A DNA stretch of 64,000 bases, taken from contig CAVRJL010000016.1 in assembly GCA_963721525.1 (NCBI GenBank), positions 22,781 through 86,780 on the forward strand, given 5' to 3'. Origin of the DNA: an uncultured Negativicutes bacterium (GTDB lineage: Bacteria; Bacillota; Negativicutes; JBAXTZ01). The notes beneath the pieces were generated by a model, which worked only from the letters and a program-made list of their open reading frames with translations, was not told the origin of the DNA and did not search any database. Positions 31,851 through 61,102 of the stretch are shown in pieces. The position numbers were made by a program, and so were the translations under genes. Position 1 is the first letter of the stretch; each line of letters begins with the position of its first letter.

Positions 31851-31874
31851 ATAAGGGGATATGAAAATCAGTAT

Positions 31875-32453: not shown

Positions 32454-32951
32454 ATGTTGATTTTAGGAATTGATCCTGGTATGGCTATTTGTGGATATGG
32501 GTTAGTTTGTCAAAAAGCTAATAAATTATTGGCTGTTACTTATGGGGCGATCTCTACAAAATCTACATATTCAATGAGTAAACGTTTAAATATAATTTAT
32601 CATGAATTAGGACAGATAATTCATGAATATCGTCCGGATGCAGTTGCAGTTGAACAATTATTTTTCTCTAAAAACGTAAAAACAGCATTAAATGTTGGAC
32701 AAGCTAGAGGGGTGATAATGTTAGCTGTTGAAAGAATAGGGGAAATATCTATACTTGAATATACTCCATTACAAGTTAAGCAAGCAGTTGTAGGTTATGG
32801 TAACGCTGATAAGAAACAGGTAGCATTTATGATTATGAGAATTCTAAATATAAAAAAATGTCCAAAACCGGATGATGTTACGGATGCTTTAGCTTTAGCT
32901 ATTTGTGGTATAAATAGTTCTATTAATTGTTTGCGATGGAATAAAAAATGA
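32454..32951 (+). CDS. ruvC: Holliday junction resolvase RuvC
   Basis: ILGIDPG, AVEQLFF and the DVTDALALAIC catalytic motif. The track ORF begins at TTG 32442. Confidence 0.9.
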   Translation: MLILGIDPGMAICGYGLVCQKANKLLAVTYGAISTKSTYSMSKRLNIIYHELGQIIHEYRPDAVAVEQLFFSKNVKTALNVGQARGVIMLAVERIGEISILEYTPLQVKQAVVGYGNADKKQVAFMIMRILNIKKCPKPDDVTDALALAICGINSSINCLRWNKK

Positions 32952-33550: not shown

Positions 33551-33630
33551 TAAAAAATAGATAATTTGTTAAAATAAATACAACATATGTATCAAATAAA
33601 AATATAAAGCCTATAGAATATGGAGACTAT

Positions 33631-34635: not shown

Positions 34636-34900
34636 CAAAAAAATCTATTACCACCGGATATTATAAAAATTTATTTTTCAATTTAGTTTATATAATTAAT
34701 TATATAGGGATAATTATTTTGTATTTTTCTGTACTTTCTGTTACTGCTGTTTGCTCAAAAAACGTCCTTTTGTAATTATGTTTTGATCTTTTCACTTTTT
34801 TTGTAGCATAATAACCTCTAAATATTTAGTATTTTTAGAGCAAAGAAAAAGTTGTTAAAGAATCGGTAAACTTACTTTCTATTTAGAGGAAATTTAACTT

Positions 34901-42972: not shown

Positions 42973-44055
42973 ATGTATGAAATAATTCGTCGACAAACTA
43001 AAAAAATTAAAGTTGGTAATATAAGTATAGGTAATAAATCACCTATAAGTATTCAATCAATGTGTACCACTAAAACTTATGATATTGACTCAACAGTAAA
43101 CCAAATTAACGATTTAAAAGCTATAGGATGTGATATTATTCGTGTAGCTGTACCCGATATTGCTTCAGCTGAAGCAATTGAAAAAATTAAAAAAAGAATA
43201 AATATTCCTCTTATAGCAGATATACATTTTGATTACCGGTTAGCTTTAAAAGCTTTAGAACAAGGTATAGATGGATTAAGGATAAATCCTGGAAATATTG
43301 GAAATGTGGAAAATGTAAAGATTGTTGCCAGAGAAGCGAAAAGACGTAATGTTCCGATAAGAATAGGTATAAATAGTGGATCGATAGAAAAAGATTTATT
43401 AGAAAAATATGGAAATTTTCCAACTGCAGAAGCGATGGTGCAAAGTGCTATACGCCATATAATAATACTAGAACAATGTGATTTTTATAATATTAAAGTT
43501 TCTTTAAAAGCAAATAGCGTTCCTCTGACTATTGAGGCTTATCGTTTATTAGCAAGTCAATATAATTATCCTTTGCATATTGGAATAACTGAAGCAGGAA
43601 CTATAAAATCTGGAATAGTCAAATCTGCTATAGGCATAGGAATTTTATTAGCGCAAGGAATAGGAGATACAATTAGAGTATCTCTTACAGACGATCCTAA
43701 AAAAGAAGTTAAAGCAGGAATTGAAATCCTAAAAGTGTTAGGTTTAAAAAAATATGGAGTAGAATTAATATCTTGTCCTACATGCGCAAGAACAGAGATA
43801 GATCTAATAAATCTTTGCAAACGAATAGAAAAAAGAATGCAATGTATAATTGAACCTTTATCAGTAGCAATAATGGGATGTGTTGTTAATGGGCCAGGAG
43901 AAGCTAAACAAGCTGATATAGGAATAGCAGGGGGAAAAGGGGAAGGAGTATTATTTATAAAAGGGGAAATAATAAAAAAAGTACCAGAAAATAAGTTAGA
44001 AGAAGCTCTTTTTATAGGAATAAACGATATTTTAAAAAATAAAATAATTTATTAG
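42973..44055 (+). CDS. ispG: 4-hydroxy-3-methylbut-2-en-1-yl diphosphate synthase
   Basis: QSMCTTKT, RINPGNIG, ISCPTCART and GCVVNGPGEA. Confidence 0.95.
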   Translation: MYEIIRRQTKKIKVGNISIGNKSPISIQSMCTTKTYDIDSTVNQINDLKAIGCDIIRVAVPDIASAEAIEKIKKRINIPLIADIHFDYRLALKALEQGIDGLRINPGNIGNVENVKIVAREAKRRNVPIRIGINSGSIEKDLLEKYGNFPTAEAMVQSAIRHIIILEQCDFYNIKVSLKANSVPLTIEAYRLLASQYNYPLHIGITEAGTIKSGIVKSAIGIGILLAQGIGDTIRVSLTDDPKKEVKAGIEILKVLGLKKYGVELISCPTCARTEIDLINLCKRIEKRMQCIIEPLSVAIMGCVVNGPGEAKQADIGIAGGKGEGVLFIKGEIIKKVPENKLEEALFIGINDILKNKIIY

Positions 44056-44123
44056 GCTTATGTTTCTGTGAAAACAAAAAATTTTTATCGAATCTTATTC
44101 AGGGAGAAATTATTTAAAATTAT

Positions 44124-44152
44124 TTGCAAGGTTATAGAAGTTATGCTATAGT
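44124..44152 (+). promoter_or_regulatory. Candidate promoter of the S10 ribosomal operon
   Basis: TTGCAA (44124-44129), a 17-nt spacer, then TATAGT (44147-44152). Confidence 0.5.
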
Positions 44153-44279
44153 ATTTTGGTATTTGGTAAGAGATATTTTCTAGCATTCATATGATACGCC
44201 CGGAAGCGTTTACATAAAATTTTTAGTATTTACAACTTAACTGTATAATTTTAGCTGAATAAGGAGGATATAATTATTT

Positions 44280-44591
44280 ATGGGGAAACAACAAAAAATT
44301 AGAATTAGATTGAAAGCATATGATCACAAGGCATTAGATATGTGTGCACAACGAATAATTGATACTGTAAAAAGAACTAATGCGTTGGTTGCAGGACCTA
44401 TACCTCTACCTACAGAAAAAAATACATATACTATTCTTCGTTCACCACACGTTAATAAAGATTCGCGCGAACAATTTGAAATGCGTACACATAAGCGCTT
44501 AATTGACATTGTTGAACCTACAAAAAAGACGGTAGATGCTTTAAAAAGACTTGATCTGCCAGCAGGTGTAGATATAGAAATTAAGCTCTAG
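44280..44591 (+). CDS. rpsJ: 30S ribosomal protein S10
   Basis: [15 protein letters not shown]...[24 protein letters not shown]. Confidence 0.95.
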
Positions 44592-44599
44592 GAGGAAAT

Positions 44600-45235
44600 A
44601 TGCAAAAAGGTTTATTAGGTAAAAAGTTGGGAATGACTCAAGTTTTTTCTCAAGATGGCACGTTATTACCAGTGACGGTTGTAGAAGTTACAGATAATGT
44701 TGTTTTACAAAATAAGACTATTGAAAATGATGGATATAATGCGGTACAAATTGGTTTTGGAGCAGTTAACGAAAAAAAACTAACTAAACCAGCTATAGGA
44801 TTTTTTAAAAAAATAAATAAAAAGCCTGTACGATATATTCGCGAAATTCGTTTAAAAGAACCTTCTATTTACACTCCAGGTACTTTATTAGGACCAGATA
44901 TTCTCAGCATAGGCGAATCAGTTGATATCACAGGTATTTCTAAGGGAAAAGGATTTTCAGGAGGCATTAAACGGCATAATTTTGCACGTGGACCCATGAG
45001 TCATGGTTCTAAATCCCATAGAGAACCGGGATCCATGGGGCCAAGAATGTCAGGTGGCGGCGGTAGAGTTTTTAAAGGCAAAAAATTACCTGGACAAATG
45101 GGTTTTGAAAAAGTTACTGTCCAAAATTTAACAATAGCAAGAATAGATAAACCTCGTAACTTGCTTCTTATAAAAGGTGCGGTCCCTGGATCTAAAGGGG
45201 CTTTAGTTTTAATACGTAGAGCGAAAAAATGCTGA
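44600..45235 (+). CDS. rplC: 50S ribosomal protein L3
   Basis: GLLGKKLGMTQVF...GKGFSGGIKRHNF. Confidence 0.95.
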   Translation: MQKGLLGKKLGMTQVFSQDGTLLPVTVVEVTDNVVLQNKTIENDGYNAVQIGFGAVNEKKLTKPAIGFFKKINKKPVRYIREIRLKEPSIYTPGTLLGPDILSIGESVDITGISKGKGFSGGIKRHNFARGPMSHGSKSHREPGSMGPRMSGGGGRVFKGKKLPGQMGFEKVTVQNLTIARIDKPRNLLLIKGAVPGSKGALVLIRRAKKC

Positions 45236-45275
45236 TAAACAATAAAGATTAGGGGAATAAGGAGGATTAGTTATT

Positions 45276-45899
45276 GTGCCTATAGTTAAGGTATATAATA
45301 TGCAAGGTTCTCAAACTGATGAAATAGATTTAAAAGAGTCTGTTTTTGGAATTAAAGCCAATGAAGCGCTAGTTCATCAGGCAGTAAAAATATATTTAGC
45401 TAGTAAAAGATTAGGAACTCACAAGACAAAAAAACGTGATGAAGTGAGAGGAGGAGGCAAAAAACCTTGGCGACAAAAAGGTACAGGGCGTGCACGAGCT
45501 GGTTCGATTCGTTCGCCTCTTTGGGTAGGCGGAGGAACGATTTTTGGTCCACACCCACGCAGTTATACTTTTACAATGCCGCGTAAAGCTAGGAGAATAG
45601 CTATAAAATCTGCTCTTAGCAGCAAGATAGAATCTTCAGAAATAATAGTTATTGATGAAATAAAATTAGCCGAAATAAAAACAAAGCAAATTGTTGAATT
45701 TTTAAAAAATTTTGATAGTCCAAAAAAGGCTTTAATAATAACTGCAGTAAAAAATGAAAATATACTGAAGTCAAGTTTAAATATAACTGGAGTTAAGTCA
45801 ATAATTTCTGTAGGTATAAATGTTTTCGATTTATTGTACCATGATAAGATTTTTGTTGAAAGAGCAGCAATTTCTAAAATTCAAGAGGTGTGTATATAG
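45276..45899 (+). CDS. rplD: 50S ribosomal protein L4
   Basis: RGGGKKPWRQKGTGRARAGSIRSPLWVGGG. GTG start. Confidence 0.95.
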   Translation: MPIVKVYNMQGSQTDEIDLKESVFGIKANEALVHQAVKIYLASKRLGTHKTKKRDEVRGGGKKPWRQKGTGRARAGSIRSPLWVGGGTIFGPHPRSYTFTMPRKARRIAIKSALSSKIESSEIIVIDEIKLAEIKTKQIVEFLKNFDSPKKALIITAVKNENILKSSLNITGVKSIISVGINVFDLLYHDKIFVERAAISKIQEVCI

Positions 45900-46186
45900 T
45901 GGATAATTTGCATAATATGGTAATTAAACCTCGTATAACTGAAAAATCAAATGATATGATAACTGAGAATAAATATGTGTTTAAAATCCCACTCACTGTA
46001 AATAAAATTGAGATTAAAATAGTTATAGAAAAAATTTTTAAAGTAAAAATAGTTAATGTTAATATAATTAGAGTTTATGGAAAAATAAAACGTATGGGTA
46101 AAACTGTAGGTCGTCGTTCTGATTTTAAAAAAGCTATTGTTAAGCTCGCACCGGGTAATCGTATAGAAGCATTAGAAAGTATTTAA
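45890..46186 (+). CDS. rplW: 50S ribosomal protein L23
   Basis: IKPRITEKS...KKAIVKL. The true start may be GTG 45899 or ATG 45917. Confidence 0.85.
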   Translation: MYIVDNLHNMVIKPRITEKSNDMITENKYVFKIPLTVNKIEIKIVIEKIFKVKIVNVNIIRVYGKIKRMGKTVGRRSDFKKAIVKLAPGNRIEALESI

Positions 46187-46225
46187 GCTTTTATTTGATT
46201 TTGAAATAATTAGGAGGGGAAAAAG

Positions 46226-47055
46226 ATGATGGCTCTTAAAACTTTTAAACCAACATCTAAAGGTAGACGTTTTATGAGTGTTGCTGATTTTTCCGATATT
46301 ACTGCAACAAAGCCGGAACGTTCTTTAGTAGTTAAATTAGATAAACATGGTGGGAGAAATCACCAGGGGCGTTTAACTGTGCGTCATCAGGGTGGAGGCG
46401 CTAAAAGAAAATATAGAATTATTGATTGGAAAAGGAATAAGGAAAATATAATTGCTAAAATAGCAACTATTGAATACGATCCTAATCGTTCCGCCTATAT
46501 TGCTTTATTGCATTATATGGATGGAGAAAAGCGTTATATTTTAGCGCCTAATGGAATAAGAGTCGGAGACATTGTATTAAGTGGAAACGAAGTTGATATT
46601 AAGATAGGAAATTGTTTACCTCTTAAAAATATTCCTGTAGGTAGTACTGTCACAATATGGAAATGAAAATAGGCAAGGGGGCTGAAATGGTACGTTCTGC
46701 AGGGTCTTTTGCTCAACTTATGGCGAAAGAAGGGAAATATGCTTTATTGCGTTTGCCTTCAGGAGAACAACGTAAAGTTCACTTTAATTGTAGAGCGACT
46801 ATTGGACAAGTGAGTAACATTAATCATGAAAATATTACTATTGGGAAAGCTGGACGAAATCGTTGGTTGGGGAAAAGACCTGAAAATCGCGGAACCTCAA
46901 TGAATCCTTGCGATCATCCTCATGGTGGGGGAGAAGGGCGTTCTCCAATAGGTCGGAAACATCCCGTTACTCCTTGGGGAAAATGCGCAATGGGAGCGAA
47001 AACTCGGCATAAAAAACTTTCTGATAAGATGATAGTGTCTCGACGTGTAAAATAA
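46226..47055 (+). pseudogene. rplB: 50S ribosomal protein L2 gene interrupted by a 1-nt deletion
   Basis: ...NIPVGSTV in frame 1 stops at 46664-46666. [18 protein letters not shown]... continues in the -1 frame from 46651. Total length is 830 nt, i.e. 3n-1. Confidence 0.85.
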
Positions 47056-47072
47056 ATAAATAGGAGGGAATA

Positions 47073-47357
47073 ATGTCAAGATCGACAAAAAAAGGACCTT
47101 ACGTCCATTCAAGTATATTAAAAAAAATAAACATCATGAATGAAAAAAATGAAAGAAAAGTATTTAAAACATGGTCAAGGACTTCCACAATTTTGCCTAG
47201 CTTTGTAGGCCATACTATAGCAGTACACGATGGTCGTAAACATGTTCCTATATATATGACTGAAGATATGGTTGGGCATAAGCTGGGAGAATTTGTGCCA
47301 ACAAGAACTTTTAAAGGTCACGGGTCTCATACAGAGCGTTCAACATCGTTGAAATAA
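47073..47357 (+). CDS. rpsS: 30S ribosomal protein S19
   Basis: [10 protein letters not shown]...[29 protein letters not shown]. Confidence 0.95.
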
Positions 47358-47369
47358 TGGGAGGATTGA

Positions 47370-47702
47370 ATGGAAGCTATAGCTAAAGCAAAATATATAC
47401 GAATTGCGCCTAGGAAAGCACGTATAGTAATTGATTTAATTCGTGGTAAAAATATTGATGAAGCCATTGCAATTTTGAAGTTCACTCCAAAAATCGGGGC
47501 ACTGATTGTTGAAAAAGTTTTAAAATCTACTATTGCAAACGCTGAACATAATTATAATATGAATACTTCAAAGTTATACGTATCAAAGGCTTTAGTAGAT
47601 CAAGGACCAACGTTGAAAAGAATTCATCCAAGATCTCGAGGTCAGGCATTTAAAATTTTGAAAAAAACAAGCCATATCACTATGGTTGTTGCTGAAAGGT
47701 AG
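47370..47702 (+). CDS. rplV: 50S ribosomal protein L22
   Basis: [18 protein letters not shown]...[26 protein letters not shown]. Confidence 0.95.
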
Positions 47703-47714
47703 TAGGAGGGGATT

Positions 47715-48377
47715 GTGGGGCAAAAGGTAAATCCGCATGGATTAAGAATAGGAATTATAAAATCTTGGGATGCTAAATGGTACGCAGATAAAGATTTTGC
47801 GAAATATTTGCATGAAGATATAAAGATTCGTAATTTATTAAAGAAGAAATTATATACTGCTGGAATTTCTCGCGTTATTATAGAACGTAATGGAAATCGT
47901 CTTAAAGCCACTATTTTCACAAATAAACCAGGTATAATTATAGGACGAAGCGGTGCAGGTATAGAAGAAATAAAAAAAAATATAGGTCAATTTACTGACC
48001 ATAATATAGAAGTGCAAATTCAAGAAATAAAACAAATTGACTTGGATGCAGTGTTAGTAGCACAGTTTATTGCTGCTCAATTGGAAAAAAGAATAGCATT
48101 TCGTCGTGCTATGAAACAAGCTGTGATACGAACTATGCGTGCTGGTGCTAAGGGAATAAAAGTTATGGTAAGTGGTCGTTTGGGAGGAGCAGAGATAGCT
48201 CGAAATGAGCTATATAGAGAAGGAAGTATTCCTCTTCACACGTTGCGTGCAAATATCGACTATGCTATTGCACAAGCGCATACTACTTATGGTATTATTG
48301 GCGTAAAAGTATGGATATATAAAGGTGAAATTTTGCCTCAAAAAAAAATTCTTTCTGCTGAAGGAGGCAAACAATAA
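47715..48377 (+). CDS. rpsC: 30S ribosomal protein S3
   Basis: [13 protein letters not shown]...[13 protein letters not shown] start. Confidence 0.95.
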
Positions 48378-48988
48378 TGCTTGTTCCAAAAAGAAGTAAA
48401 TTTCGAAAACAATTTCGTGGTAGAATGGTTGGTAAAGCAAATAAAGGAAATAAAGTCTCTCATGGCGAATTTGGATTAACGGCTTTAGAACCGTCTTGGA
48501 TCACAAATAGACAAATTGAAGCTGCTCGTATTGCGATGACACGTTATATTAAGCGTGGAGGACAAGTTTGGATAAAAATTTTTCCAGATAAACCTGTAAC
48601 TGCAAAGCCAGCTGAAACTCGTATGGGTAGCGGTAAAGGTTCTCCAGAATATTGGGTTGCTGTGGTGAAACCAGGTAGGGTTATGTTTGAAATTGCTGGA
48701 GTGTCTGAAGAGGTTGCAAAAGAAGCATTTCGTTTAGCTGGTCATAAATTACCTATTAAAACAGGTTTTATTAAAAAAGAAACGGAAGGTGAAGTAGTGA
48801 AACAAATGAAAGTTAAAGAGATCCGTGAAATGAACGATAATGAATTATTAGGAAAGTTGAATAAATTAAAAGAAGATCTTTTCAACTTACGTTTCCAACT
48901 TGCTATTGGGCAATTAGAAAACTTTTCGCGAATACGTGAAGTAAAAAAAAGTATTGCTAGAATAAAAACTGTACAGCGTGAACAGTGA
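48377..48988 (+). CDS. rplP: 50S ribosomal protein L16, no stop codon, reading in frame into L29
   Basis: The first 143 aa are L16 ([17 protein letters not shown]...[13 protein letters not shown]). The ORF then continues directly into the L29 sequence. Confidence 0.85.
48806..48988 (+). CDS. rpmC: 50S ribosomal protein L29 (in frame within the rplP ORF)
   Basis: [39 protein letters not shown]. Confidence 0.85.
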
Positions 48989-49023
48989 ACTGAAACGCGC
49001 TTAGGAAAGGAAGAGGTAAAAAA

Positions 49024-49272
49024 GTGGAAAGAAATGAACGCAAAGTACGTATTGGTAAAGTCGTAAGCAATAAGATGAAAAAAACTGTGGTTATTTCTAT
49101 CGACCGTATCGTTTCTCATCCAATGTATAAGAAGTTGGTAAACCATACAAAAAAATTTAAAGCTCATGATGAAAAGAATGAATGTTCTATAGGCGATACA
49201 GTTAAGATTATGGAAACACGTCCATTATCTAAAAATAAATATTTTAGAGTAGTAAAATTACTGAAAAAGTAA
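49024..49272 (+). CDS. rpsQ: 30S ribosomal protein S17
   Basis: [23 protein letters not shown]...[26 protein letters not shown] start. Confidence 0.95.
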
Positions 49273-49316
49273 AATAAAACAATTTAGTTGTTTTATGAGC
49301 TGAAGGAGATAATTTA

Positions 49317-49685
49317 ATGATTCAGCAAGAAACAAGATTGAATATTGCGGATAATACCGGAGCAAAAGAAATATTATGTATTCGTGTATTGGGAGGATCT
49401 TTCCGTAGATATGCTAATATTGGAGATGTTATTGTTGGTTCTGTCAAAGAGGCATCCCCCGGAGGCGTTGTTAAGAAAGGGGAAGTTGTAAAAGCGGTAA
49501 TTGTTCGTTCTGCTAAAGGACTGAAACGTTCGGATGGATCGTATATTAAATTTGATGATAATGCGGCTGTTATTATAAAAGATGATAAGTCTCCTAAAGG
49601 CACTCGTGTATTTGGCCCAGTAGCGAGAGAGTTGCGTGAAAAAGATTTTATGAAGATAATTTCGCTTGCGCCAGAAGTAATTTAG
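49317..49685 (+). CDS. rplN: 50S ribosomal protein L14
   Basis: [18 protein letters not shown]...FGPVARELR. Confidence 0.95.
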
Positions 49686-49710
49686 GAAGTAATTTAGGCG
49701 GAGGTTTGGA

Positions 49711-50050
49711 ATGGTTAGGGGAAAAAAAATACATATAAAAAAAGGCGACAATGTTATAGTTTTATCAGGAAAGGATAAAGGGAAAAAGGAAAGATTATAG
49801 AAGTTATTACCTAACAGTGGAAAAGTTATAATAGAAGGGATAAACAAAGTATACAAACATATGCGTTCTACTCACAAAAAATCCTCAAGGCGGTATTATA
49901 CTTAAAGAAGCTCCGATTTATGGGTGTAAAGTTATGTTATTATGTCCAAGTTGTAATAAACCGACTAGAATTAGTAAGACGGTTTTATCAGATGGGGAAA
50001 AAACTCGTGTTTGTAAAAACTGTGAGGAAATAGTTGATAGCAGAAAATAA
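49711..50050 (+). pseudogene. rplX: 50S ribosomal protein L24 gene with three frameshifts
   Basis: The conserved sequence is spread over three frames: MVRGKKIHIKKGDNVIVLSGKDKGKK | GKIIEV | [22 protein letters not shown] | [31 protein letters not shown].... Length is 340 nt, i.e. 3n+1. Confidence 0.85.
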
Positions 50051-50071
50051 CGCGTAGAAAGGAGTAAAAAA

Positions 50072-50633
50072 ATGGCATCAAGGCTAAAAGAAAAATATTT
50101 TAAAGAGATTGCCGATATTTTAAAGGCAAAATTTAATTACAAAAATATTATGCAAATCCCAAAAATTGAAAAAGTAGTAATTAATGTCGGTATTGGAGAA
50201 GCGGTCGGAACTCCTAAAACGATAGATGTCAGCTATGCAAGATATAATGACTATTTCCGGACAAAAGCCTGTTATTACTAAAGCTAAAAAATCAATTGCG
50301 GCATTTAAAGTCCGTCAAGGTATGAATTTAGGAATAAAAGTAACTCTTCGCAATGAGAGAATGTATTATTTTTTAGATAAATTAATTAATGTAGCATTGC
50401 CAAGAGTACGTGACTTCCGTGGAGTAAGTTCAACGTCTTTTGATGGACGAGGAAATTATAACTATGGGTGTTAAGGAACAACTTATTTTTCCTGAGATAG
50501 AATATGATAAAGTTGATGAAATTCGTGGCATGGATATTGCGATTATAACTACGTGCAGAAAATGATGAAGAAGCGCGTGAATTATTAAAATTATCGGCAT
50601 GCCATTCAGCGTAAAGAAAGGGGAAATAGATAA
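50072..50633 (+). pseudogene. rplE: 50S ribosomal protein L5 gene with four to five frameshifts
   Basis: Segments [10 protein letters not shown]...PKTID | [26 protein letters not shown]...GRGNYNY | [29 protein letters not shown] | [12 protein letters not shown] | GMPFS lie in successive frames. Confidence 0.85.
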
Positions 50634-50819
50634 TGGCAAAAAAATCAATGATAGAAAAATGGAAAAGCGAACCGAAATTTCCAACTCGTAAATATAACAG
50701 ATGCGAAATTTGTGGGCGTCCACATGGATATTTGAGAAAATTTAAAATGTGTAGAATTTGTTTTCGGAATTCAGTGCTATAAAGGTGCTATTCCGGGTGT
50801 AACTAAAGCAAGTTGGTAA
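50633..50819 (+). pseudogene. rpsN: 30S ribosomal protein S14 (Zn-ribbon short form) gene with one frameshift
   Basis: [46 protein letters not shown], then a +1 nt shift into [13 protein letters not shown]. Length is 187 nt. Confidence 0.85.
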
Positions 50820-50845
50820 GCTTTTTATAAAGGGGGTTAACAATA

Positions 50846-51247
50846 ATGGTAATGACCGATCCTATTGCTGATATGCTTACTCGAATTCGTAATGCTAATT
50901 CGGTTTATCATGCTAAAGTTGAAATACCGGCGTCAAAAATAAAAGAGGCAATTGCTCATATTCTAAAAGCAGAGGGATTTATAACGGATTATAAATTTAT
51001 CGGAAATAATAAACAAGGTATTTGAAAGGTTCGATTACGTTATAATATAGATAAACAGAAAGTAATTTCACTGGAATTAAACGTATTTCTAAACCCGGAT
51101 TACGCGTTTATGCCAAACAGCGAGGAAATACCACGTGTATTTGGGGGCTTAGGTATTGCCATTATATCGACTTCGCAGGGGCTTATGTCTGATAAGCATG
51201 CACGTAAAGCTAGTCTCGGTGGTGAAGTTATAGCTTATGTTTGGTAA
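50846..51247 (+). pseudogene. rpsH: 30S ribosomal protein S8 gene with an in-frame TGA and a compensating -1/+1 indel pair
   Basis: [18 protein letters not shown]...NKQGI*KVRLRY, with the TGA at 51023. [17 protein letters not shown] is readable only in another frame (about 51070-51120). Then [19 protein letters not shown] follows in the original frame. Confidence 0.85.
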
Positions 51248-51276
51248 TAAGCGAATAAGCGGAGGTGAATATAAAT

Positions 51277-51825
51277 ATGTCAAGAATTGGTAGAAAACCA
51301 ATTATTATACCCAAAGATATTAATTTAGAAATTAATAATAATTTTATTACAATACAAGGACCTAAAGGGCAATTAAGTAGACAAATTAATATAAAAATAA
51401 AGATTGAAGTAAATAATAATGAATTAATTGTAAGACGTCTAAATGATGATAAAATACAAAAAAGTATGCACGGATTATCCAGAACATTAATTGCTAATAT
51501 GATTGAAGGAGTAACTAAAGGTTTTAGTAAAACTCTAGAAATAGTAGGTATAGGTTATCGTGCTGCTAAAACTGAAAATAATTTAACTTTAACTTTAGGG
51601 TTTTCTCATCCTATAGTAGAAGTACCACCAAAAGGAATAAGTATTGATGTGCCAACTCAAAATAAAATTGTAATTAATGGTATTGATAAAGAAGCGGTAG
51701 GTGCTTTTGCCGCAAAAATTCGGGGGTATCGTGCACCTGAACCTTATAAGGGGAAAGGAATTAAGTATGAGGGCGAATTAATACGTCGTAAAGCCGGAAA
51801 AACTGGAGCTAAAGGTAAAAAATAA
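51277..51825 (+). CDS. rplF: 50S ribosomal protein L6
   Basis: [15 protein letters not shown]...GYRA.... ATG 51277 follows GGAGGTG; the track ORF starts at 51265. Confidence 0.95.
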
Positions 51826-51850
51826 CACTATTATTAAAGGAGTAAACGTC

Positions 51851-52213
51851 ATGCTCAAAAAAGTAGATAAGAACCTTTCCAGAAAAAACCGTCATCTAAA
51901 AATACGTAAAGTAGTTATCGGGACACCGGAAAAGCCACGTTTAAGCATTTTCCGAAGCTTGAAAAATATTTATGCTCAAATTATAGATGACGAAAACGGT
52001 AAAACTTTAGTGGCCGCTAATAATATAATAAAAGAATTAAGAGGAAGATACGGTGGTAATATCGAGATAGCAAAAGCTATAGGAAGTATGATAGGTAAAC
52101 GTGCTTTAGAAAAAGGTATTAAGAAAGTGGTGTTTGATCGTAACGGATACCTTTATCATGGTCGTGTTGAAGCCGTAGCTGTTGGTGCCCGTGAAGCAGG
52201 ACTAGAATTCTAA
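51851..52213 (+). CDS. rplR: 50S ribosomal protein L18
   Basis: [23 protein letters not shown]...[23 protein letters not shown]. Confidence 0.95.
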
Positions 52214-52226
52214 ATTGGAGGAATAG

Positions 52227-52739
52227 ATGACAAGGATTGATTATTCGACATTAGAGTTGAAAGAAAAGGTTGTATATATTAACCGTGTTGCAAAAGTTGT
52301 AAAGGGAGGCCGTAGATTTTCTTTTTCTGCCTTAGTGGTTGTTGGGGATGGAAGTGGATATGTAGGTGTTGGCTTAGGCAAAGCTTCTGAAGTTCCTGAA
52401 GCAATTCGTAAGGGCGTTCAAGATGGAAAGAAAAATTTAATAAATGTGCCGATTGTAAACACTACTATTCCTCATGAAATAATAGGATTTTTTGGAGCTG
52501 GTAAGGTTTTATTAAAACCGGCAACGCAAGGTACGGGAGTTATAGCCGGTGGTCCTGTTCGCGCGGTCTTAGAATTAGCGGGAGTTAGGAACATCTTGAC
52601 AAAATCTTTGGGTTCTTCAAACTCTGCCAATATGATAAAGGCTACATTAAATGGATTAGGAATGCTAAAGAAAGTTGATGAAGTTGCTTTATTAAGAGGG
52701 CGAAGTATTTCAGATATTTTGGGAGGTAGAAGAATATAA
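52227..52739 (+). CDS. rpsE: 30S ribosomal protein S5
   Basis: [35 protein letters not shown]. Confidence 0.95.
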
Positions 52740-52921
52740 TGGCAAAGTTAAAAATTACTTTGAAAAAAAGTTTAATTGGTAGACCAAAAACACAAATAAA
52801 AATTGTAGCAGCTTTAGGTTTAAAAAAAACAAATAGTTCTGTAATAAAAAATAGTGAGGATACTATTTTAGGAATGCTTAAAAAAGTAAACCATTTAGTT
52901 TGTATCGAAAATGTGGAATAA
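52739..52921 (+). CDS. rpmD: 50S ribosomal protein L30
   Basis: [28 protein letters not shown]. Confidence 0.9.
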
Positions 52922-52938
52922 GTTAGAGGAGAATTGAC

Positions 52939-53379
52939 ATGAAACTACATGAATTATCTCCAGCAATGGGCTCAATTAAGAGTCGTGTGCGTGTAGGACG
53001 CGGTTTGGGATCTGGTGTAGGAAAAACATCAGGGCGAGGGCAAAAAGGACAAAAAGCTCGTGCGGGAGGAGGTGTAAGAATCGGGTTTGAAGGGGGACAG
53101 ATGCCTTTGTATAGGCGTTTACCCAAACGTGGATTTCATAATAAATGGGGAACAGAGATAGTTATAATCAATGTAGGATTATTAGAAAAATTTAAATCTA
53201 ATACAATAATTGATCCTGTAATGTTAATACGGACAGGAATAATAAAAAAGGTCAAAGATGGAATAAAAATTTTAGGTAGCGGCGAAATAACAAAGCCTTT
53301 TATTGTGAAGGCACAAGCTTTTTCTAAATCTGCCAGAGAAAAAATAGAATCTGTAGGCGGAAAAGCTGAGGTGATTTAA
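52939..53379 (+). CDS. rplO: 50S ribosomal protein L15
   Basis: [12 protein letters not shown]...[35 protein letters not shown]. Confidence 0.95.
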
Positions 53380-54639
53380 TTGATTTCGGAATTAAAAAGT
53401 ATTTGGTCAGCAATGGAATTAAGACGAAAAATAAAGTTTACTTTATTTATGTTTTTAATTTTTCGCTTTGGTTCTCATTTAACGGTCCCTGGAATAGATA
53501 TAAGCAAATTGGCTAAAATGTTTGGAAAAAATAGCTTATTTGACTTGATGGATTTATTCGCTGGTGGTTCGTTTTCTAAGTTTTCCATATTTGCTATGAG
53601 TATCACGCCTTATATTAACGCATCTATCATTATGCAGTTGCTTGGAATTTTGATACCTACAATCCACCGTTGGGGTAAAGATGAGGGGGATGAAGGTCAA
53701 AAAAAACTTATACAATGTATACGTTATGGCACTGTAGTTCTTGCCTTTATTCAAGGAATAGGATTATCTTACGGATTTTCTGCCGCTCTAGTTAATGAAG
53801 GGATAAATTTACATCTGTTGATTGCTACAATTTTGACGGCTGGGACAGTATTTTTAATGTGGATTGGGGAACAAATTACTGACAAAGGCATAGGCAATGG
53901 TATATCTTTGATTATTTTTGTTGGAATTATATCCGGATTGCCAAGTGGAATAAGTACTATCATAAAGTATGTTTCTGCTGGCACGATTAATATTTTATCG
54001 GTTTTATTGTTTATGTTTTTAGCAATATTAATGATAATATTTGTTATTTTTATTCAGCAAGGGCAAAGAAAAATTCCTGTTCAGTATGCTAAACGAATGG
54101 TTGGCCGTAAAGTTTATGGAGGACATTCAACATATATACCTTTGAAGGTAAATCAATCAGGAGTCATACCAATTATATTCGCTTCTTCTATTTTAATGTT
54201 TCCGCTTACTTTAGTTCAATTTATAAATGTTGCTTGGATAAAAACAATAGCAACTTATATTTCTTGGGGAACGTTTATACATAGTTTTTTTTATGTTATT
54301 TTGATAATTATGTTTACTTATTTTTATACAAGTGTTACTTTTAATACTGAAGATATTGCTGATAATATGAGAAAATATGGAGGATTTATTCCAGGGTTAA
54401 GACCTGGTAAGTCCACAGCAGAATATTTGTACAAAGTTATGTTTCGCATAACTTTACCGGGAGCTGTTTTTTTGGCAATAATTGCAGTATTACCAAATTT
54501 TATGGGTTGGATTAGTGGAATTCCAGGGATATACTTTGGCGGAACAGCATTATTGATTATTGTAGGCGTAGCACTAGATACTATGAAACAAATTGAATCA
54601 ATAATATTACAACGTCAATATAAAGGATTTATGAAATAA
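53380..54639 (+). CDS. secY: Preprotein translocase subunit SecY
   Basis: LRRKIKFTLFMFLIFRFGSHLTVPGID...ITPYINASIIMQLL...GIGNGISLIIF. TTG start. Confidence 0.95.
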   Translation: MISELKSIWSAMELRRKIKFTLFMFLIFRFGSHLTVPGIDISKLAKMFGKNSLFDLMDLFAGGSFSKFSIFAMSITPYINASIIMQLLGILIPTIHRWGKDEGDEGQKKLIQCIRYGTVVLAFIQGIGLSYGFSAALVNEGINLHLLIATILTAGTVFLMWIGEQITDKGIGNGISLIIFVGIISGLPSGISTIIKYVSAGTINILSVLLFMFLAILMIIFVIFIQQGQRKIPVQYAKRMVGRKVYGGHSTYIPLKVNQSGVIPIIFASSILMFPLTLVQFINVAWIKTIATYISWGTFIHSFFYVILIIMFTYFYTSVTFNTEDIADNMRKYGGFIPGLRPGKSTAEYLYKVMFRITLPGAVFLAIIAVLPNFMGWISGIPGIYFGGTALLIIVGVALDTMKQIESIILQRQYKGFMK

Positions 54640-54655
54640 AAGGCGGAATAATATA

Positions 54656-55297
54656 ATGTATTTAATTCTTATAGGAGCACCAGGATCGGGAAAAGGGACT
54701 CAGGGGCAAAAGCTTTCTGAATATTATAAGATACCACAAATTTCTACTGGTGCTATGTTTCGAGAAGCTATAGAAAGAAGGACATCGGTTGGATTAAAAG
54801 TTAAAGAATATATGGGTTCTGGAAAATTAATTCCTAATGAGTTTGTTTTAGAAATAACTAAAGAAAGATTAAATCAGCAAGACTGCAAAAAAGGATGTAT
54901 ACTTGATGGGGTCCCACGAACTATAACCCAAGCTGAAAATTTGGAAAAAGTTTTTTTTCAAAAACAATTAAAACTTATAAAAGCTTTACATATAATTGTA
55001 TCAGAAGAAAAATTGATCGAAAGAGCTATTGGGAGACGATTTTGCAAAATTTGTCAAACTACTTATCATATATTATTTAATCCGCCAAAAATTGAAGGAG
55101 TTTGTAACCTTGATTCTGGAAAATTATTTCAACGGTATGATGATAAAGAAGAAACGATAAAAAATAGAATTTTAGAATATAGAAATTTAACTTATCCGTT
55201 AGTAGATTATTATAAGAAAAAAAATATATATTATGCTTTAAATGGTTTACAATCAATTGATAAAGTTTTTTTAGATATTCTTTCAGTTTTGAAATAG
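54656..55297 (+). CDS. adk: Adenylate kinase
   Basis: LIGAPGSGKGTQG. The lid CKICQTTYH...CNLDSG has a partly degenerate Zn site. Confidence 0.95.
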   Translation: MYLILIGAPGSGKGTQGQKLSEYYKIPQISTGAMFREAIERRTSVGLKVKEYMGSGKLIPNEFVLEITKERLNQQDCKKGCILDGVPRTITQAENLEKVFFQKQLKLIKALHIIVSEEKLIERAIGRRFCKICQTTYHILFNPPKIEGVCNLDSGKLFQRYDDKEETIKNRILEYRNLTYPLVDYYKKKNIYYALNGLQSIDKVFLDILSVLK

Positions 55298-55315
55298 AGT
55301 GGTATAAAATAATAA

Positions 55316-56062
55316 ATGATAATTATAAAAAATATTAAAGAAATAGGATATATGCGTAATGTTGGGAAATTAGCAGCAGAGACTCTAAAGCTAGTAGGTT
55401 CGTTTGTTAAGGTAGGTACTACTACGAATAAACTTAATTTTTTAGCAGAAGAATTTATATTGAAAAAAGGAGCTTTGCCTTCTTTTAAAGGATATAATGG
55501 ATTTCCGGCGATTATATGTACATCGATTAATGAAGAAGTTGTACATGGAATACCAAGTGAGCGTGAATTGGTTGAGGGAGATATAGTTAGTATAGATGTA
55601 GGAGTGTATTTAAATGGATTTCACGCCGACGTTTCTGCTACATTTGCTGTTGGTGAAATACCGTTTTGCACAAAACAGTTATTACAAGTTACGAAAAAGT
55701 CTTTATATAAGGGAATTTATTCGGCGACCGCGGGGAATAGAATAGGAGATATATCTTATTCTATTCAATCTTATTGTGAATCTTTCGGTTATGGAATTGT
55801 AAAAGATATGTGCGGACATGGCATAGGAAGAAATTTACATGAAGAACCTGAAGTTCCTAATTTTGGTAAGTGCAAAACAGGAGTAAAACTTATACCAGGT
55901 ATGACTTTAGCAATTGAACCTATGGTAAATATGGGAAAAGATGAGATAGAAGTTTTAGATGATAATTGGACAGTAGTAACAAAAGATTATATGATATCAG
56001 CGCATTTTGAACATACTATATTGATTACCGAAAATGAACCAGAAATTTTAACCATTAGTTAA
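55316..56062 (+). CDS. map: Type I methionine aminopeptidase
   Basis: VVHGIP, DIVSIDVG, GHGIGRNLHEEP and EPMVN..FEHT. Confidence 0.95.
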   Translation: MIIIKNIKEIGYMRNVGKLAAETLKLVGSFVKVGTTTNKLNFLAEEFILKKGALPSFKGYNGFPAIICTSINEEVVHGIPSERELVEGDIVSIDVGVYLNGFHADVSATFAVGEIPFCTKQLLQVTKKSLYKGIYSATAGNRIGDISYSIQSYCESFGYGIVKDMCGHGIGRNLHEEPEVPNFGKCKTGVKLIPGMTLAIEPMVNMGKDEIEVLDDNWTVVTKDYMISAHFEHTILITENEPEILTIS

Positions 56063-56086
56063 GGCGTAAACGAGGAGGATTTATCT

Positions 56087-56305
56087 ATGTCTAAGCAAGA
56101 TATAATCGAGATAGAAGGAATTGTAATGGAATCATTGCCTAATGCTATGTTTAAAGTTAAAATAGAAAATGGTCATATTATTTTAGCACATGTCTCAGGC
56201 AAAATTAGAACAAATTTTATTAGAATTTTATCTGGAGATAAAGTTCTTGTAGAACTTACGCCTTATGATTTAACACGTGGCCGTATTACTTATCGGTTTA
56301 AATAG
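56087..56305 (+). CDS. infA: Translation initiation factor IF-1
   Basis: [35 protein letters not shown]... Confidence 0.95.
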
Positions 56306-56318
56306 GGAGGAATTTTGA

Positions 56319-56432
56319 ATGAAAATTAGATCGTCCGTAAAACCAATATGTGAAAAATGTAAAATTATTAAACGTAAGGGTAAAATAATGGTTATTTGTG
56401 AAAATCCAAAACATAAACAAAAACAAGGATAA
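56319..56432 (+). CDS. rpmJ: 50S ribosomal protein L36 (Zn form)
   Basis: 37-codon [40 protein letters not shown]. It is absent from the track because of its size. GGAGG lies upstream. Confidence 0.9.
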
Positions 56433-56449
56433 GGGGGAATAAAATAGTT

Positions 56450-56821
56450 ATGGCGCGTATTGCCGGCGTTGATTTACCAAGAAATAAGAGAATGGAATAT
56501 GCTTTACCATATATTTATGGAATTGGTTTGATTTTATCTCAAGAAATATTAAAATCTATAGCTATTAATTTTAATACTCGTGTTAAAGATTTAACAGAAG
56601 AAGAAGTAGCTAAATTACGTGAATATATTGATAAGAATTATAAGGTGGAAGGAGATTTACGTCGTGAAGAACAATTAAATATTAAGAGATTAATTGAAAT
56701 AGGTTCATATCGTGGACGTCGTCACCGCATGAGTCTGCCTACTAGAGGACAAAGGTCGAAAACTAATGCACGTACTTGTAAAGGTCCACGACGTACTACA
56801 GGTGCTAAGCGAAAAAAATAA
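56450..56821 (+). CDS. rpsM: 30S ribosomal protein S13
   Basis: [26 protein letters not shown]...GSYRGRRHR. Confidence 0.95.
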
Positions 56822-56839
56822 TAAAAGGAGGAGAAAATT

Positions 56840-57231
56840 TTGGCAATCAAAAAGTCGATGAAAACGAAAAAAAAGAATATAAAAATATTGATCATGGAGA
56901 TGCACATATTCATTCTACTTTTAATAATACTATAGTAACAATTACCGATAAAGTAGGTAATTGTATTGCTTGGTCAAGTGCTGGTATTTTGGGATTTAAA
57001 GGTTCAAGGAAAAGCACTCCTTTTGCTGCGGGTATTGTTGCCGAAAAAGCAAGTAGGACAGCTATAGAACACGGCTTAAAGATAGTGGATGTTTTTGTTA
57101 ATGGACCGGGTGCAGGACGCGAAGCAGCAATACGTTCATTACAAATGACGGGTTTGGATGTTTCTTCTATAAAAGATGTAACTCCTATTCCACATAATGG
57201 TTGTCGTCCACCTAAACGTAGAAGAGTATAA
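56840..57231 (+). pseudogene. rpsK: 30S ribosomal protein S11 gene with a 1-nt deletion in an A5 run
   Basis: TTG start after AAGGAGGAG gives (M)[14 protein letters not shown] in frame 1. [22 protein letters not shown]...[13 protein letters not shown] continues in the -1 frame from 56884. Length is 392 nt, i.e. 3n-1. Confidence 0.8.
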
Positions 57232-57250
57232 ATGGAGGAAATAGAAACAA

Positions 57251-57883
57251 ATGGCAAGATATATTGGAGCGTTATGTAGATTATGTCGTCGTGAAGGAGG
57301 TAAGCTATTTCTGAAAGGTGATAAATGTTATAGTGTTAAATGTCCAATTTTAAGGAGAACTTATGCTCCTGGACAGCACGGATTAGGAAGGAAAAAGAAA
57401 CTTTCAGAATATGGTATTCAATTACGCGAAAAACAAAAAGCTCGTCGTATATATGGACTTACTGAAAATCAATTTAGGCTTACTTTTGGTAAAGCTGAAA
57501 GAATGAAAGGAATAACAGGAGAAAATCTACTAATAACCTTAGAAAGAAGGTTAGATAATGTTATTTATAGGATGGGTATGGCTGATAATAGAAATCAAGC
57601 ACGCCAAATGGTTCGGCATGGGTTTTTTTTAGTAAAAAATACAAGAGTAAATATACCGTCTTATCTTGTAAAAATAAATGATGACATTACGGTGGCTGAA
57701 GATCGTAAAGAGTCGTCTTTAATCAAAGCCATAGCAGATGCTTTGCCTCGTAGAGGAACTTTAGCCCAATGGATGGAAATAGACACAAATAATTTAAATG
57801 CTCGTATTTCTCGTTTTCCTAATCGGGATGAAATAATAATTCCATTACAAGAACAATTAATAGTGGAATTATATTCCCGATAA
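57251..57883 (+). CDS. rpsD: 30S ribosomal protein S4
   Basis: [25 protein letters not shown]... Confidence 0.95.
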
Positions 57884-57928
57884 CATACGCTACAATTGCT
57901 ACAATAGAAAAATTGGGAGAAATGTAAC

Positions 57929-58903
57929 ATGGTAGAAAGTAAGCAATCTAAAATAAGTTTGATTGATTCTAACGATTCTAACGTAAAGAATACATATGGG
58001 CGTTTTGTATGGGAGCCATTACCACGTGGGCATGGAATTACATTAGGTAATAGTTTACGAAGAATTTTGATGTCTAGTCTTCCGGGAGCAGCAGTTACCT
58101 CAATAAACATAGAAGGAATTTTACACGAGTTTTCAACTGTAGTTGGAGTACGAGAAGATGTAACAGATATAGTATTGAATATAAAGTCTTTACGCTTACG
58201 TATTGATTCGAAAGAGCCATGTAAAATTAAAATAGATTATAAAGGACAAGGTATAATAAAAGCGAGTGATATAATTTGTCCACCAGAAGTCAGTATCCTT
58301 AATCCTGAATTATATATCGCCTCTTTAGAAAAAGAGGGAGAGTTAAAAATTACTATGAACGTACAAACTGGTATAGGATATGTGTCGGCAGAGAAAAATA
58401 AAAATTCAAGTGTATCCATTGGAGAAATATACGTTGATTCAATATTTACTCCTATTATAAGAGTAAATTATGATATTTCGGATACACGTGTAGGAAATGT
58501 TACAAATTTTGATAAATTAACGCTTGATATTTGGACAGATGGAAGCATAACTCCGAGTTACGCTCTTGGAAAGACAGCAGGAATATTTATTGAATATATG
58601 CAACAAGTTACTAATTTAGCAGGTATTGAGGTTGTTCATGAAAATATAGGCAATTTTAATCAAGTTAGTAGGTTAGATAATGATCACCAATTGATTCCTA
58701 TAGATGATGTTGAATTTTCTGTCAGGGCAAAAAATTGTTTAGCACGTACAGGTGTTAAATATTTACATGAAATAAGTAATTTAACTGAAATGGAACTAAA
58801 TAATATTAAAAACGCGGGTAAAAAAACAATTGATGAAATTAAAGCTAAATTAATTTCATCAGGAATGAGTTTACGAACAACTACTAAAGGAGGCATTCTA
58901 TAG
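57929..58903 (+). CDS. rpoA: DNA-directed RNA polymerase alpha subunit
   Basis: GRFVWEPLPRGHGITLGNSLRRILMSSLPGAAVTS. The C-terminal domain has VRAKNCLARTGVKYLHE. Confidence 0.95.
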   Translation: MVESKQSKISLIDSNDSNVKNTYGRFVWEPLPRGHGITLGNSLRRILMSSLPGAAVTSINIEGILHEFSTVVGVREDVTDIVLNIKSLRLRIDSKEPCKIKIDYKGQGIIKASDIICPPEVSILNPELYIASLEKEGELKITMNVQTGIGYVSAEKNKNSSVSIGEIYVDSIFTPIIRVNYDISDTRVGNVTNFDKLTLDIWTDGSITPSYALGKTAGIFIEYMQQVTNLAGIEVVHENIGNFNQVSRLDNDHQLIPIDDVEFSVRAKNCLARTGVKYLHEISNLTEMELNNIKNAGKKTIDEIKAKLISSGMSLRTTTKGGIL

Positions 58904-59242
58904 ATGGTACGAAGAAGGCTTGGCAGAGATAGCAGTGCATTGCGTGCTTTACTGAGGGGAATTACGACTTCTTTTTTGTTACACGGAAAAATTAAAACAA
59001 CAGCAGCGAAAGCTAAGGAATTAGTTAGGTGTGCATCAAAAATGATAACTTTGGCTAAACGCGGCGATTTGCACGCTCATAGACAAATTCTAGCATTTAT
59101 AACAGACAAAAAAGTTGCAAAAAAATTATTGGAAGAAATAGCCCCAAAATATGTTGATCGTAATGGTGGATATACTAGAATATACAAGTTAGGTACTCGT
59201 CGTGGTGATTGTGCTCCACTTACGTTTATTGAGTTAGTGTAA
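58904..59242 (+). CDS. rplQ: 50S ribosomal protein L17
   Basis: [34 protein letters not shown]...[15 protein letters not shown]. Confidence 0.95.
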
Positions 59243-59365
59243 GGTATATTTTTAATAAATACAAATAAGTATTTTAAAAGAAATTTATTTTAAGTTAGGA
59301 CTTGATTTTTTTTATTTTTTATTAAATAATTTAAAATATAAATTTAGTATATTAAAAAAACATTT

Positions 59366-59400
59366 ACCCTTTCCCTGCGGAGAGGGTTTCTAAGTTTTTG
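59366..59400 (+). terminator. Terminator-like hairpin after rplQ
   Basis: ACCCUUUC (59366-59373) pairs with GAGAGGGU (59380-59387). A U-rich tract UUCUAAGUUUUU follows. Confidence 0.45.
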
Positions 59401-59408
59401 AGGGTAAA

Positions 59409-60245
59409 ATGGATTTTATAAAATGCGAAAACTTAAATTATGTATATAAAGAAAAATACAAAGAAGGAAAAGCTATCATAGCCTTAAATAATATAAACTT
59501 AACTGTAAAAGAAAACGAATTTATCGTCATTTTAGGAGGAAATGGATCTGGAAAATCATCTTTAGCAAAACATTTTAATGCTTTATTAACGCCTAGTGCA
59601 GGAAAATGCTTTATTAAGGGCAAAGATACTTCTGATTTAGAGGAAATTTGGAATATTAGGCAACTTGTAGGTATGGTATTTCAAAATCCTGATAATCAAA
59701 TTGTTGCTACAATTGTTGAGGAAGATGTTGCTTTCGGCCCAGAAAATATTGGAATGGAATCTACAGAAATCCGCAAAAAAGTAAATGAAGTGTTAAAAAT
59801 TGTAGGAATGAGCGACTATAAACTCCATAAAATTCACCATTTATCAGGGGGGCAAAAACAAAGAATAGCAATAGCAGGAGCGCTTGCTTTAGATGCACAA
59901 TGTCTTGTTTTAGATGAACCAACGGCAATGCTTGATCCTAAAGGACGTAATGAGGTATTGGATACTTTAATAAAATTAAATACAAAAAAAAATAAAACTA
60001 TCATCCACATTACACATTATATGGAAGAAGCCTTAATAGCAGATAGAATTATTGTTATGTCTAAAGGTAAAATTTTGATTGATGATTTACCCATAAATAT
60101 TTTTTCAAATACCGAGCTTGTTGAATATGCTAAGCTTGATGTTCCCTTAGCAATTGATTTGGCAAATAAAATTCGTTTGTTAGGAATATCTATGCCGAAA
60201 GGGATAATAAATAAAGAACAATTATTGGAGTTTTTATGTCCATAG
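59409..60245 (+). CDS. ecfA1: ECF transporter ATPase component EcfA1
   Basis: Walker A GGNGSGKSS, signature LSGGQKQR and Walker B LVLDEPT. Confidence 0.9.
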   Translation: MDFIKCENLNYVYKEKYKEGKAIIALNNINLTVKENEFIVILGGNGSGKSSLAKHFNALLTPSAGKCFIKGKDTSDLEEIWNIRQLVGMVFQNPDNQIVATIVEEDVAFGPENIGMESTEIRKKVNEVLKIVGMSDYKLHKIHHLSGGQKQRIAIAGALALDAQCLVLDEPTAMLDPKGRNEVLDTLIKLNTKKNKTIIHITHYMEEALIADRIIVMSKGKILIDDLPINIFSNTELVEYAKLDVPLAIDLANKIRLLGISMPKGIINKEQLLEFLCP

Positions 60246-61102
60246 TTATAGAAAATGTTAATTTCACTTATATGAAAAAAACTCCTTTTGAAAAACGAGT
60301 TTTGGCAGATATAAATATTACTATTGAAAAAGGAGAAATTATAGGACTTATTGGACATACAGGTTCTGGAAAATCAACTCTTATTCAACATTTCAATGGT
60401 TTATTAAAACCAGATAGCGGAAATGTTTTCATAAATGGAATTAATATAAATAAACGCTCTAAAGAAGCTCTAATACAAAAACGTAAAGTCGGATTAGTAT
60501 TTCAGTACCCTGAATATCAATTATTTGAAGAAACAATAGGAGATGATATAAGGTTTGGACCAAAAAACTATGGATTAGATACGAAGGAAATAGAAAAAAG
60601 AGTGAGGTTTTCCATGGAGGTTGTAGGATTAAGCTACCATGAATATGTAAATCGTTCACCTTTTTTCTTATCGGGTGGTCAAAGGAGAAGAGTAGCATTG
60701 GCAGGAATACTGGTATTAGAGCCAGAATATTTGATTTTAGATGAACCATCTTCAGGGTTGGACCCGAATGGAAAGCGTTATATACTTGATAAAATTTCAG
60801 AAATACAAAAAAAAAGAGGTTGTACAGTAGTAATGATTTCTCATGACATGGAGGAAATAGCAAAATATACGAACAGAATAATAGTAATGAATAATAAGCG
60901 AATAATTCTTGATAATAAGAAAGAGTTTATTTTTAAAAAAATTGTAAAGTTACAAAAAATTGGGTTAGATATACCAGATATAATAAAAATAATGAGAACA
61001 GCAAAGCAAAGAGGATTAAACGTGAAAGAAAATATCTTTGATCGTCAAGAAGGTGCTGAACAATTGGCTAAAGCGTATAGAGAGAAAATAAATGTTGAAT
61101 GA
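60236..61102 (+). CDS. ecfA2: ECF transporter ATPase component EcfA2
   Basis: GHTGSGKST, LSGGQRRR and LILDEPS. It overlaps the end of ecfA1. Confidence 0.9.
   Translation: MSIVIENVNFTYMKKTPFEKRVLADINITIEKGEIIGLIGHTGSGKSTLIQHFNGLLKPDSGNVFINGININKRSKEALIQKRKVGLVFQYPEYQLFEETIGDDIRFGPKNYGLDTKEIEKRVRFSMEVVGLSYHEYVNRSPFFLSGGQRRRVALAGILVLEPEYLILDEPSSGLDPNGKRYILDKISEIQKKRGCTVVMISHDMEEIAKYTNRIIVMNNKRIILDNKKEFIFKKIVKLQKIGLDIPDIIKIMRTAKQRGLNVKENIFDRQEGAEQLAKAYREKINVE

Follow-up and report, generated by a model that had tools for sequence, protein, structure and literature searches.

Frame-breaking lesions in a 3-kb patch of a ribosomal protein operon very probably reflect a local assembly or consensus artefact

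The locus considered here lies in the S10-spc-alpha ribosomal protein operon of a bacterium of about 30% G+C, within a 64-kb stretch of DNA that was analysed as a whole and is called the window in what follows. An SLH-domain outer-membrane protein is encoded upstream of the operon. Ribosomal proteins of the window are closest to those of Negativicutes and other Bacillota; L5 shares about 75% identity with proteins from "Negativicutes bacterium" MAGs. No close relative of the organism was found among GTDB species-representative genomes; the best match to rplF in that set is 58-62% identical (Selenomonadaceae, Paenibacillaceae), and these matches served as protein references, being too distant for a comparison of the locus itself. 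The top matches to L5 in a homology search, P0001-P0003 (ENA, other organisms), are 267-302 aa long and contain most of L5 in a slightly different tandem repeat. Judged by their sequences, they look like strain-collapse assembly artefacts in the ribosomal genes of other metagenome assemblies.

Across positions 49711-51247, the conserved proteins L24, L5, S14 and S8 can be read only through changes of frame, as seen both in three-frame translation and in tblastn searches with Firmicutes orthologues, where the window copies give only piecewise matches spread over the frames. Alignment to intact contigs of an independent assembly, Logan, resolves the damage in rplX, rplE, rpsN and rpsH into 12 lesions, comprising 11 indels and one TTA>TGA change. 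The broken genes, their neighbours and the region in which the deposited contig diverges from Logan are listed here in window coordinates.

48194-51157, no strand: divergence island, deposited contig versus Logan, with 34 substitutions and 19 indel events in 2964 nt
48377-48988, plus strand: rplP-rpmC (L16-L29) fusion ORF of 203 aa, apparently artefactual, caused by an inserted GT at 48797-48798
49024-49272, plus strand: rpsQ (S17), C-terminal frameshift from a missing T at 49252, 82 aa here versus 84 aa in Logan
49317-49685, plus strand: rplN (L14), intact, within the island, with a single synonymous difference (49658)
49711-50050, plus strand: rplX (L24), missing A at 49782 (A5 here, A6 in Logan), extra C at 49810, extra C at 49875
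50072-50614, plus strand: rplE (L5), extra T at 50227, extra T at 50463 (part of a complex change at 50463-50466), extra C at 50552, missing C at 50593, missing T at 50613
50633-50819, plus strand: rpsN (S14, zinc-type, 61 aa), broken by an extra A at 50768
50846-51247, plus strand: rpsH (S8), TTA>TGA at 51024, extra CT at 51071-51072, extra G at 51120
51277-51825, plus strand: rplF (L6), intact, with zero differences from Logan

The missing T at 50613 costs rplE its stop codon; in the intact reading the gene ends in GTA TAA. No slippery motif or context is common to the lesion sites, which combine +1, +2 and -1 changes with a nonsense codon. Only one site is a lesion in an A-run (A5 versus A6, at 49782), while another is a C inserted into an A7 run. 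The TGA at 51024 was considered as a reassigned codon and ruled out, since the intact allele has TTA (Leu) at this position; orthologues have L or I.

The original prediction, which held that the four proteins can be recovered only by hopping between frames and that the out-of-phase segments still encode conserved peptide, is upheld on both points by three-frame translation and tblastn. Its count of twelve lesions proved exact when the window was aligned to the intact Logan contigs, and its positions were correct to within a few bases; the gain of one base that it placed at 49806 is an extra C at 49809/49810. In S8, it had called a loss of one base near 51070, which has the equivalent effect on the frame, although the actual change is a gain of two. 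The fifth lesion that it suspected in L5 does exist, but the true stop is the TAA that the missing T removes, not a TAATG overlap with rpsN.

The comparison assembly is Logan, for public run ERR11594402, with contigs L001 and L002 found by exact-protein look-ups of intact genes neighbouring the damage. The contigs are evidently from the same organism; if the deposited contig represents another sample, they show only the intact allele in a near-identical strain. Three of them tile window positions 43316-60742.

43316-49787: Logan contig L001
49783-51762: Logan contig L083 (1968 nt)
51735-60742: Logan contig L002

These contigs join end to end, with overlaps of 7 nt and 28 nt, and the composite encodes uninterrupted L2, L16, L29, S17, L14, L24, L5, S14, S8 and L6. 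The gene order, rplN-rplX-rplE-rpsN-rpsH-rplF, is canonical. When a frame-repaired L5 was used as a homology query, a single near-identical protein came back, P0004 (180 aa, 98% identical). This intact L5 is recorded from Logan alone, is encoded on contig L083 and has a full-length Pfam match (PF00281 plus PF00673). Intact L24 is 112 aa long and matches the Pfam KOW and ribosomal_L24 models at full length (PF00467 plus PF17136, 1-65 of 65). The intact S14 matches PF00253 over profile positions 1-54 of 54, and S8, at 132 aa, matches PF00410 over positions 1-126 of 126. Flanks of the intact rplX, rplE, rpsN and rpsH in Logan match the window at 99.96-100%, and all 12 lesions, together with 7 further indels, appear as indel or nonsense differences from contigs L001 and L083. 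The original prediction had named uninterrupted ORFs in independent data as the sign of an assembly artefact, and the contigs of ERR11594402 contain them.

The two versions also separate cleanly by source. Products of the broken ORFs (L5, S8 and L2 fragments, the L16-L29 fusion and the shifted S17) are recorded from NCBI/ENA only, where they trace to one contig of 122,776 nt, and intact versions are recorded from Logan only. None of eight window-specific products (six broken fragments, the L16-L29 fusion and the shifted S17) was found in Logan, though the identical flanks are present there. No second copy of the affected genes occurs within the 64-kb window, and a 35-nt exact rpsH pattern had no match in a scan of JGI metagenomes. 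The Logan graph breaks twice inside or beside the damaged zone, at 49787, where the overlap is only 7 nt, and at 51735-51762. Both breaks are consistent with weak or heterogeneous accurate-read support in that region.

The 19 indel events of the island comprise 14 insertions and 5 deletions, none of them a multiple of three in length. Besides the inserted GT that fuses rplP to rpmC, an extra A at 48984 shifts the C-terminus of L29 in the window; in Logan contig L001, L16 (145 aa) and L29 (65 aa) are encoded by separate genes. The spacer between rplX and rplE holds four more indel events. Intact rplN, inside the island, is explained by no indel having happened to fall there, where about 2.4 would be expected in 369 nt at the island rate. 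The island ends 120 nt upstream of rplF. The sharp boundaries and clean flanks that had been placed at rplN and rplF are thus not borne out, as the damage extends over about 3 kb (48.2-51.2 kb) and also takes in rplP, rpmC and rpsQ.

Substitutions in the island carry a clear signature of selection. Those in coding sequence are 18 synonymous and 14 non-synonymous, and 18 of 32 compares with 21% synonymous expected at random (P = 1.8e-5). Third codon positions account for 20 of the same 32 (P = 7e-4). Amino-acid variants of the frame-repaired window allele are conservative, and at five of nine resolved differences it is the window allele that matches the majority residue among orthologues, as with D for E and T for S in L5, or K for E and T for S in S8. 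The synonymous and third-position bias indicates that the substitutions come from a real allele under selection in a slightly different strain. By its sequence, the window allele beneath the indels is evidently functional and under purifying selection, and the strain that contributed the island appears to be about 1% diverged. The relaxed selection typical of pseudogenes, in which changes fall at random codon positions and substitutions far outnumber indels, is not what these genes show.

With 19 indels to 34 substitutions, the island is far too indel-rich for natural decay. The indel profile as a whole, combining that ratio with the lack of multiples of three and the 14:5 excess of insertions, fits noisy reads. 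It is not a textbook Nanopore error profile, given the insertion excess and the few homopolymer errors, so the source may be noise of a PacBio-like kind or a consensus in which two haplotypes were merged. A marginal sub-hypothesis is that the insertions come from both alleles having been merged into the consensus. By eye, such an origin fits the changes at GA[T][G]TCA, A[C][G]T and TCA/ACT>TCACT, but it does not fit those at 50463-50466 and 51120. A merged-haplotype consensus should also place indels beside true SNPs, and the outcome here is only marginal, as indels fall within 13 nt of a SNP in 8 of 19 cases, versus 4.4 expected (P = 0.05, with the distance threshold chosen after looking).

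Outside the island, the agreement between the two assemblies is close throughout the four intervals compared.

12158-21561: 3 differences from Logan
21690-35129: no differences, 100.000% identity over 13,440 nt
43316-48193: 2 differences from Logan
51158-60742: 2 differences from Logan

The island therefore holds 53 events in 2964 nt (18 per kb) versus 7 in 37.3 kb of flanks (0.19 per kb), a difference in density of about 100-fold; a Poisson test of the clustering, run with a count of 54, gives P of about 4e-86. Long ORFs that are intact contain about 50 A/T homopolymers of at least 8 bases. Because flank differences are so few and these long homopolymers are read in frame, the deposited contig is taken to be accurate overall. 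General homopolymer error, which the original prediction had already discounted, is rejected on the same homopolymers and on the density comparison. To all appearances, the deposited contig and Logan represent the same genome outside the island.

One isolated lesion in the flanks deserves separate mention.

46650-46657, plus strand: rplB lesion, outside the island, with a missing G at 46650 and G>A at 46657

The change splits L2 into ORFs of 146 aa and 132 aa, and both fragments are found only in NCBI/ENA. Logan contig L001 carries an intact rplB (276 aa), and the full-length protein is found in Logan only. The rplB lesion resembles a further, very small instance of the artefact that we propose for the island. 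The original prediction had counted two other lesions in the remainder of the operon. They turn out to differ in kind, as the rplB lesion is absent from Logan and the one in rpsK, described below, is present in both assemblies.

Several smaller observations were made elsewhere in the window. In and just downstream of an OmpH-like gene (16377-16865), three differences from Logan contig L085 fall within 300 nt (16760-17058), namely C/T at 16760, an extra A at 16860 and G/C at 17058. The extra A shifts the last OmpH-like codons (162 versus 165 aa), and the cluster resembles the main island in miniature. In secY, a poly-A run (53699-53706) counts A8 in the window and A5 in Logan, which adds one Lys to the window protein without a change of frame. 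In adk, position 54701 falls in a codon that is CAG (Gln) here, giving GKGTQ, and GAG (Glu) in Logan; Gln normally occupies this position in the P-loop of adenylate kinases. The secY and adk differences indicate that real strain polymorphism or errors on the Logan side also exist. On both strands, positions 9927-12958 (about 3 kb) lack ORFs of at least 90 aa in a window that is otherwise gene-dense, and Rfam and tRNA searches of this interval returned no matches. It is probably not another error patch, because the sequence from 12158 onwards is identical in Logan.

The rpsK site has a different character.

56840-57231: rpsK (S11), conserved domain reachable only through a -1 frame change, slip site at 56867-56876

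A TTG start at 56840 has a strong ribosome-binding site, but the frame that it opens runs for only 31 codons before a stop. The -1 frame contains the S11 domain in full (Pfam positions 1-110 of 110), and no start codon precedes the domain in that frame. The two frames meet at ACG AAA AAA AAG AAT (zero frame), an A8 run containing a dnaX-type A_AAA_AAG. With its one A8 site and dnaX-type heptamer, this locus resembles the class of programmed frameshifts and poly-A slippage sites, although no stimulatory RNA structure was found downstream of the slip site (z = -0.13). The slip-site sequence is identical in Logan contig L002, where the gene call is shortened to 80 aa. Because it is identical in both assemblies, unlike the lesions of the island, the rpsK site may be real. 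It would be either a genuine -1 frameshift or transcriptional slippage site, or else a homopolymer miscall common to both assemblies.

For the island itself, the continuous reading frames of all four genes in an independent assembly lead us to conclude with high confidence that its lesions arose as a local assembly or consensus artefact in the deposited contig and are not a property of the organism. An artefact should be missing from other assemblies of the same organism, as these lesions are, and should show a local error density far above that of the rest of the contig, as the island does. The contig over 48194-51157 was probably taken from poorly supported, error-prone data of a slightly different, co-occurring minor strain. 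One possible route would be a single noisy long read, or very-low-coverage noisy long reads, bridging a weak spot; another would be a long-read segment that escaped short-read polishing. The island would then consist of two layers, the first of real allelic substitutions, mostly synonymous or conservative, and the second of raw-read indel noise, mostly insertions of 1-2 nt, breaking rplP/rpmC, rpsQ, rplX, rplE, rpsN and rpsH. The specific pipeline step and platform behind the island are what we infer from these patterns. In the organism, the affected genes would be ordinary uninterrupted ribosomal protein genes. Among the three explanations offered by the original prediction (lesions of very recent origin, an artefact, or lesions bypassed when the genes are expressed), the artefact gains support, and the biological reading, bypass included, loses weight.

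The alternatives must be weighed against this evidence. The broken allele could be a real haplotype, that is, a recently inactivated copy of the operon segment, whether in a dying or complemented strain, as a decaying paralogue, or as a copy transferred to a host genome and joined to the operon by the assembler. A second haplotype must exist in some form, as the island substitutions are real allelic differences, and the visible sequence covers 64 kb of the genome, leaving room for a copy elsewhere. Such an inactivated copy is nevertheless improbable. Its ratio of 19 indels to 34 substitutions is far too high for natural decay, and its substitutions show purifying rather than relaxed selection. 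The eight window-specific products are all missing from Logan even though the identical flanks are there, and the window itself holds no second copy. An intact allele sits between exactly the same flanks and would therefore be the resident operon copy, and inactivation would mean the simultaneous loss of six to seven essential, single-copy ribosomal genes. A related reading is that the frame-broken 3-kb allele is a real molecule of the community, faithfully assembled, with the intact allele belonging to the dominant strain. It might represent a recombinant spc-operon segment of a minor strain, either hyper-mutated or inactivated very recently, or a copy integrated elsewhere; we rate this as marginally less probable again.

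Generally low accuracy of the assembly, with homopolymer and indel errors spread genome-wide and this region a chance cluster among them, would account for the isolated discrepancies at rplB (46650), the OmpH-like gene (16860) and the SecY poly-A (53699). It is highly improbable in view of the 7 events in 37.3 kb outside the island, a span that includes 13.4 kb at 100% identity, the roughly 50 homopolymers of 8 bases or more in intact ORFs, and a Poisson probability for the cluster of about 4e-86 at the background rate. Least credible of all is that the lesions are genuine and are bypassed in expression by programmed frameshifting, translational bypassing, transcriptional slippage or RNA editing. 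Each out-of-phase segment does still encode conserved peptide, and one lesion (49782) lies in an A-run. Against these points stand 12 heterogeneous sites with no shared slippery motif and plain, uninterrupted genes at the same locus in a near-identical genome. Furthermore, we know of no recoding system that acts three to five times within a gene of 100-180 codons, which also argues against bypass.

Comparison with known systems leads back to the artefact reading. Programmed frameshifting (prfB +1, dnaX -1) and the poly-A transcriptional slippage of AT-rich endosymbionts use one defined slippery site per gene, conserved among relatives. The island resembles them in needing a frame change for a conserved protein, but it has 12 heterogeneous sites, none of them kept in a near-identical assembly, and a slippery motif or long homopolymer conserved among relatives was not found at these sites. 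Translational bypassing is known from phage T4 gene 60 and from the "byp" elements of Magnusiomyces mitochondria, where each bypassed insert is tens of nucleotides long and has matched codons for take-off and landing. Many interruptions in essential genes are common to the island and to bypass systems, in which such genes are still expressed. The island interruptions, however, are 1-2-nt indels plus one nonsense substitution, and none of them is a gap of that length between such a codon pair.

Pseudogene clusters in degrading genomes share with the island several frameshifts and a premature stop in adjacent genes. They differ in that the genes affected here are essential, single-copy ribosomal genes with an intact allele between identical flanks. 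Decay also gives random changes, whereas the island substitutions are biased toward synonymous ones (18 to 14), and it gives far more substitutions than indels, whereas the island has about one indel for every two substitutions. The closest likeness is to residual indel errors that fragment ORFs in long-read or hybrid assemblies. Frameshifts that remain where short-read polishing fails are documented for such assemblies (PMC8812927, PMC9262707, bioRxiv 10.1101/2021.08.23.457338). As in residual errors of this type, the island consists of frame-breaking 1-2-nt indels in conserved genes, absent from an accurate-read assembly and confined to a patch with apparently weak accurate-read support. Unlike typical residual errors, it is not dominated by homopolymers, and insertions exceed deletions (14 to 5). 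Unlike purely unpolished sequence, it also carries what appear to be genuine strain-level SNPs, which would make it a minor-strain segment.

The main consequence is for data quality. A public contig contains a 3-kb patch that makes seven ribosomal protein genes look like pseudogenes or fusions. Such a patch would lower marker-gene completeness estimates and distort ribosomal-protein phylogenies, and it could pass for genome decay or recoding. The combination of synonymous-biased substitutions, an implausibly high ratio of indels to substitutions, and lesions missing from an independent assembly provides a recipe for telling an artefact patch from decay. For the biology of the organism the finding has little significance, as its ribosomal protein operon would be an ordinary one.
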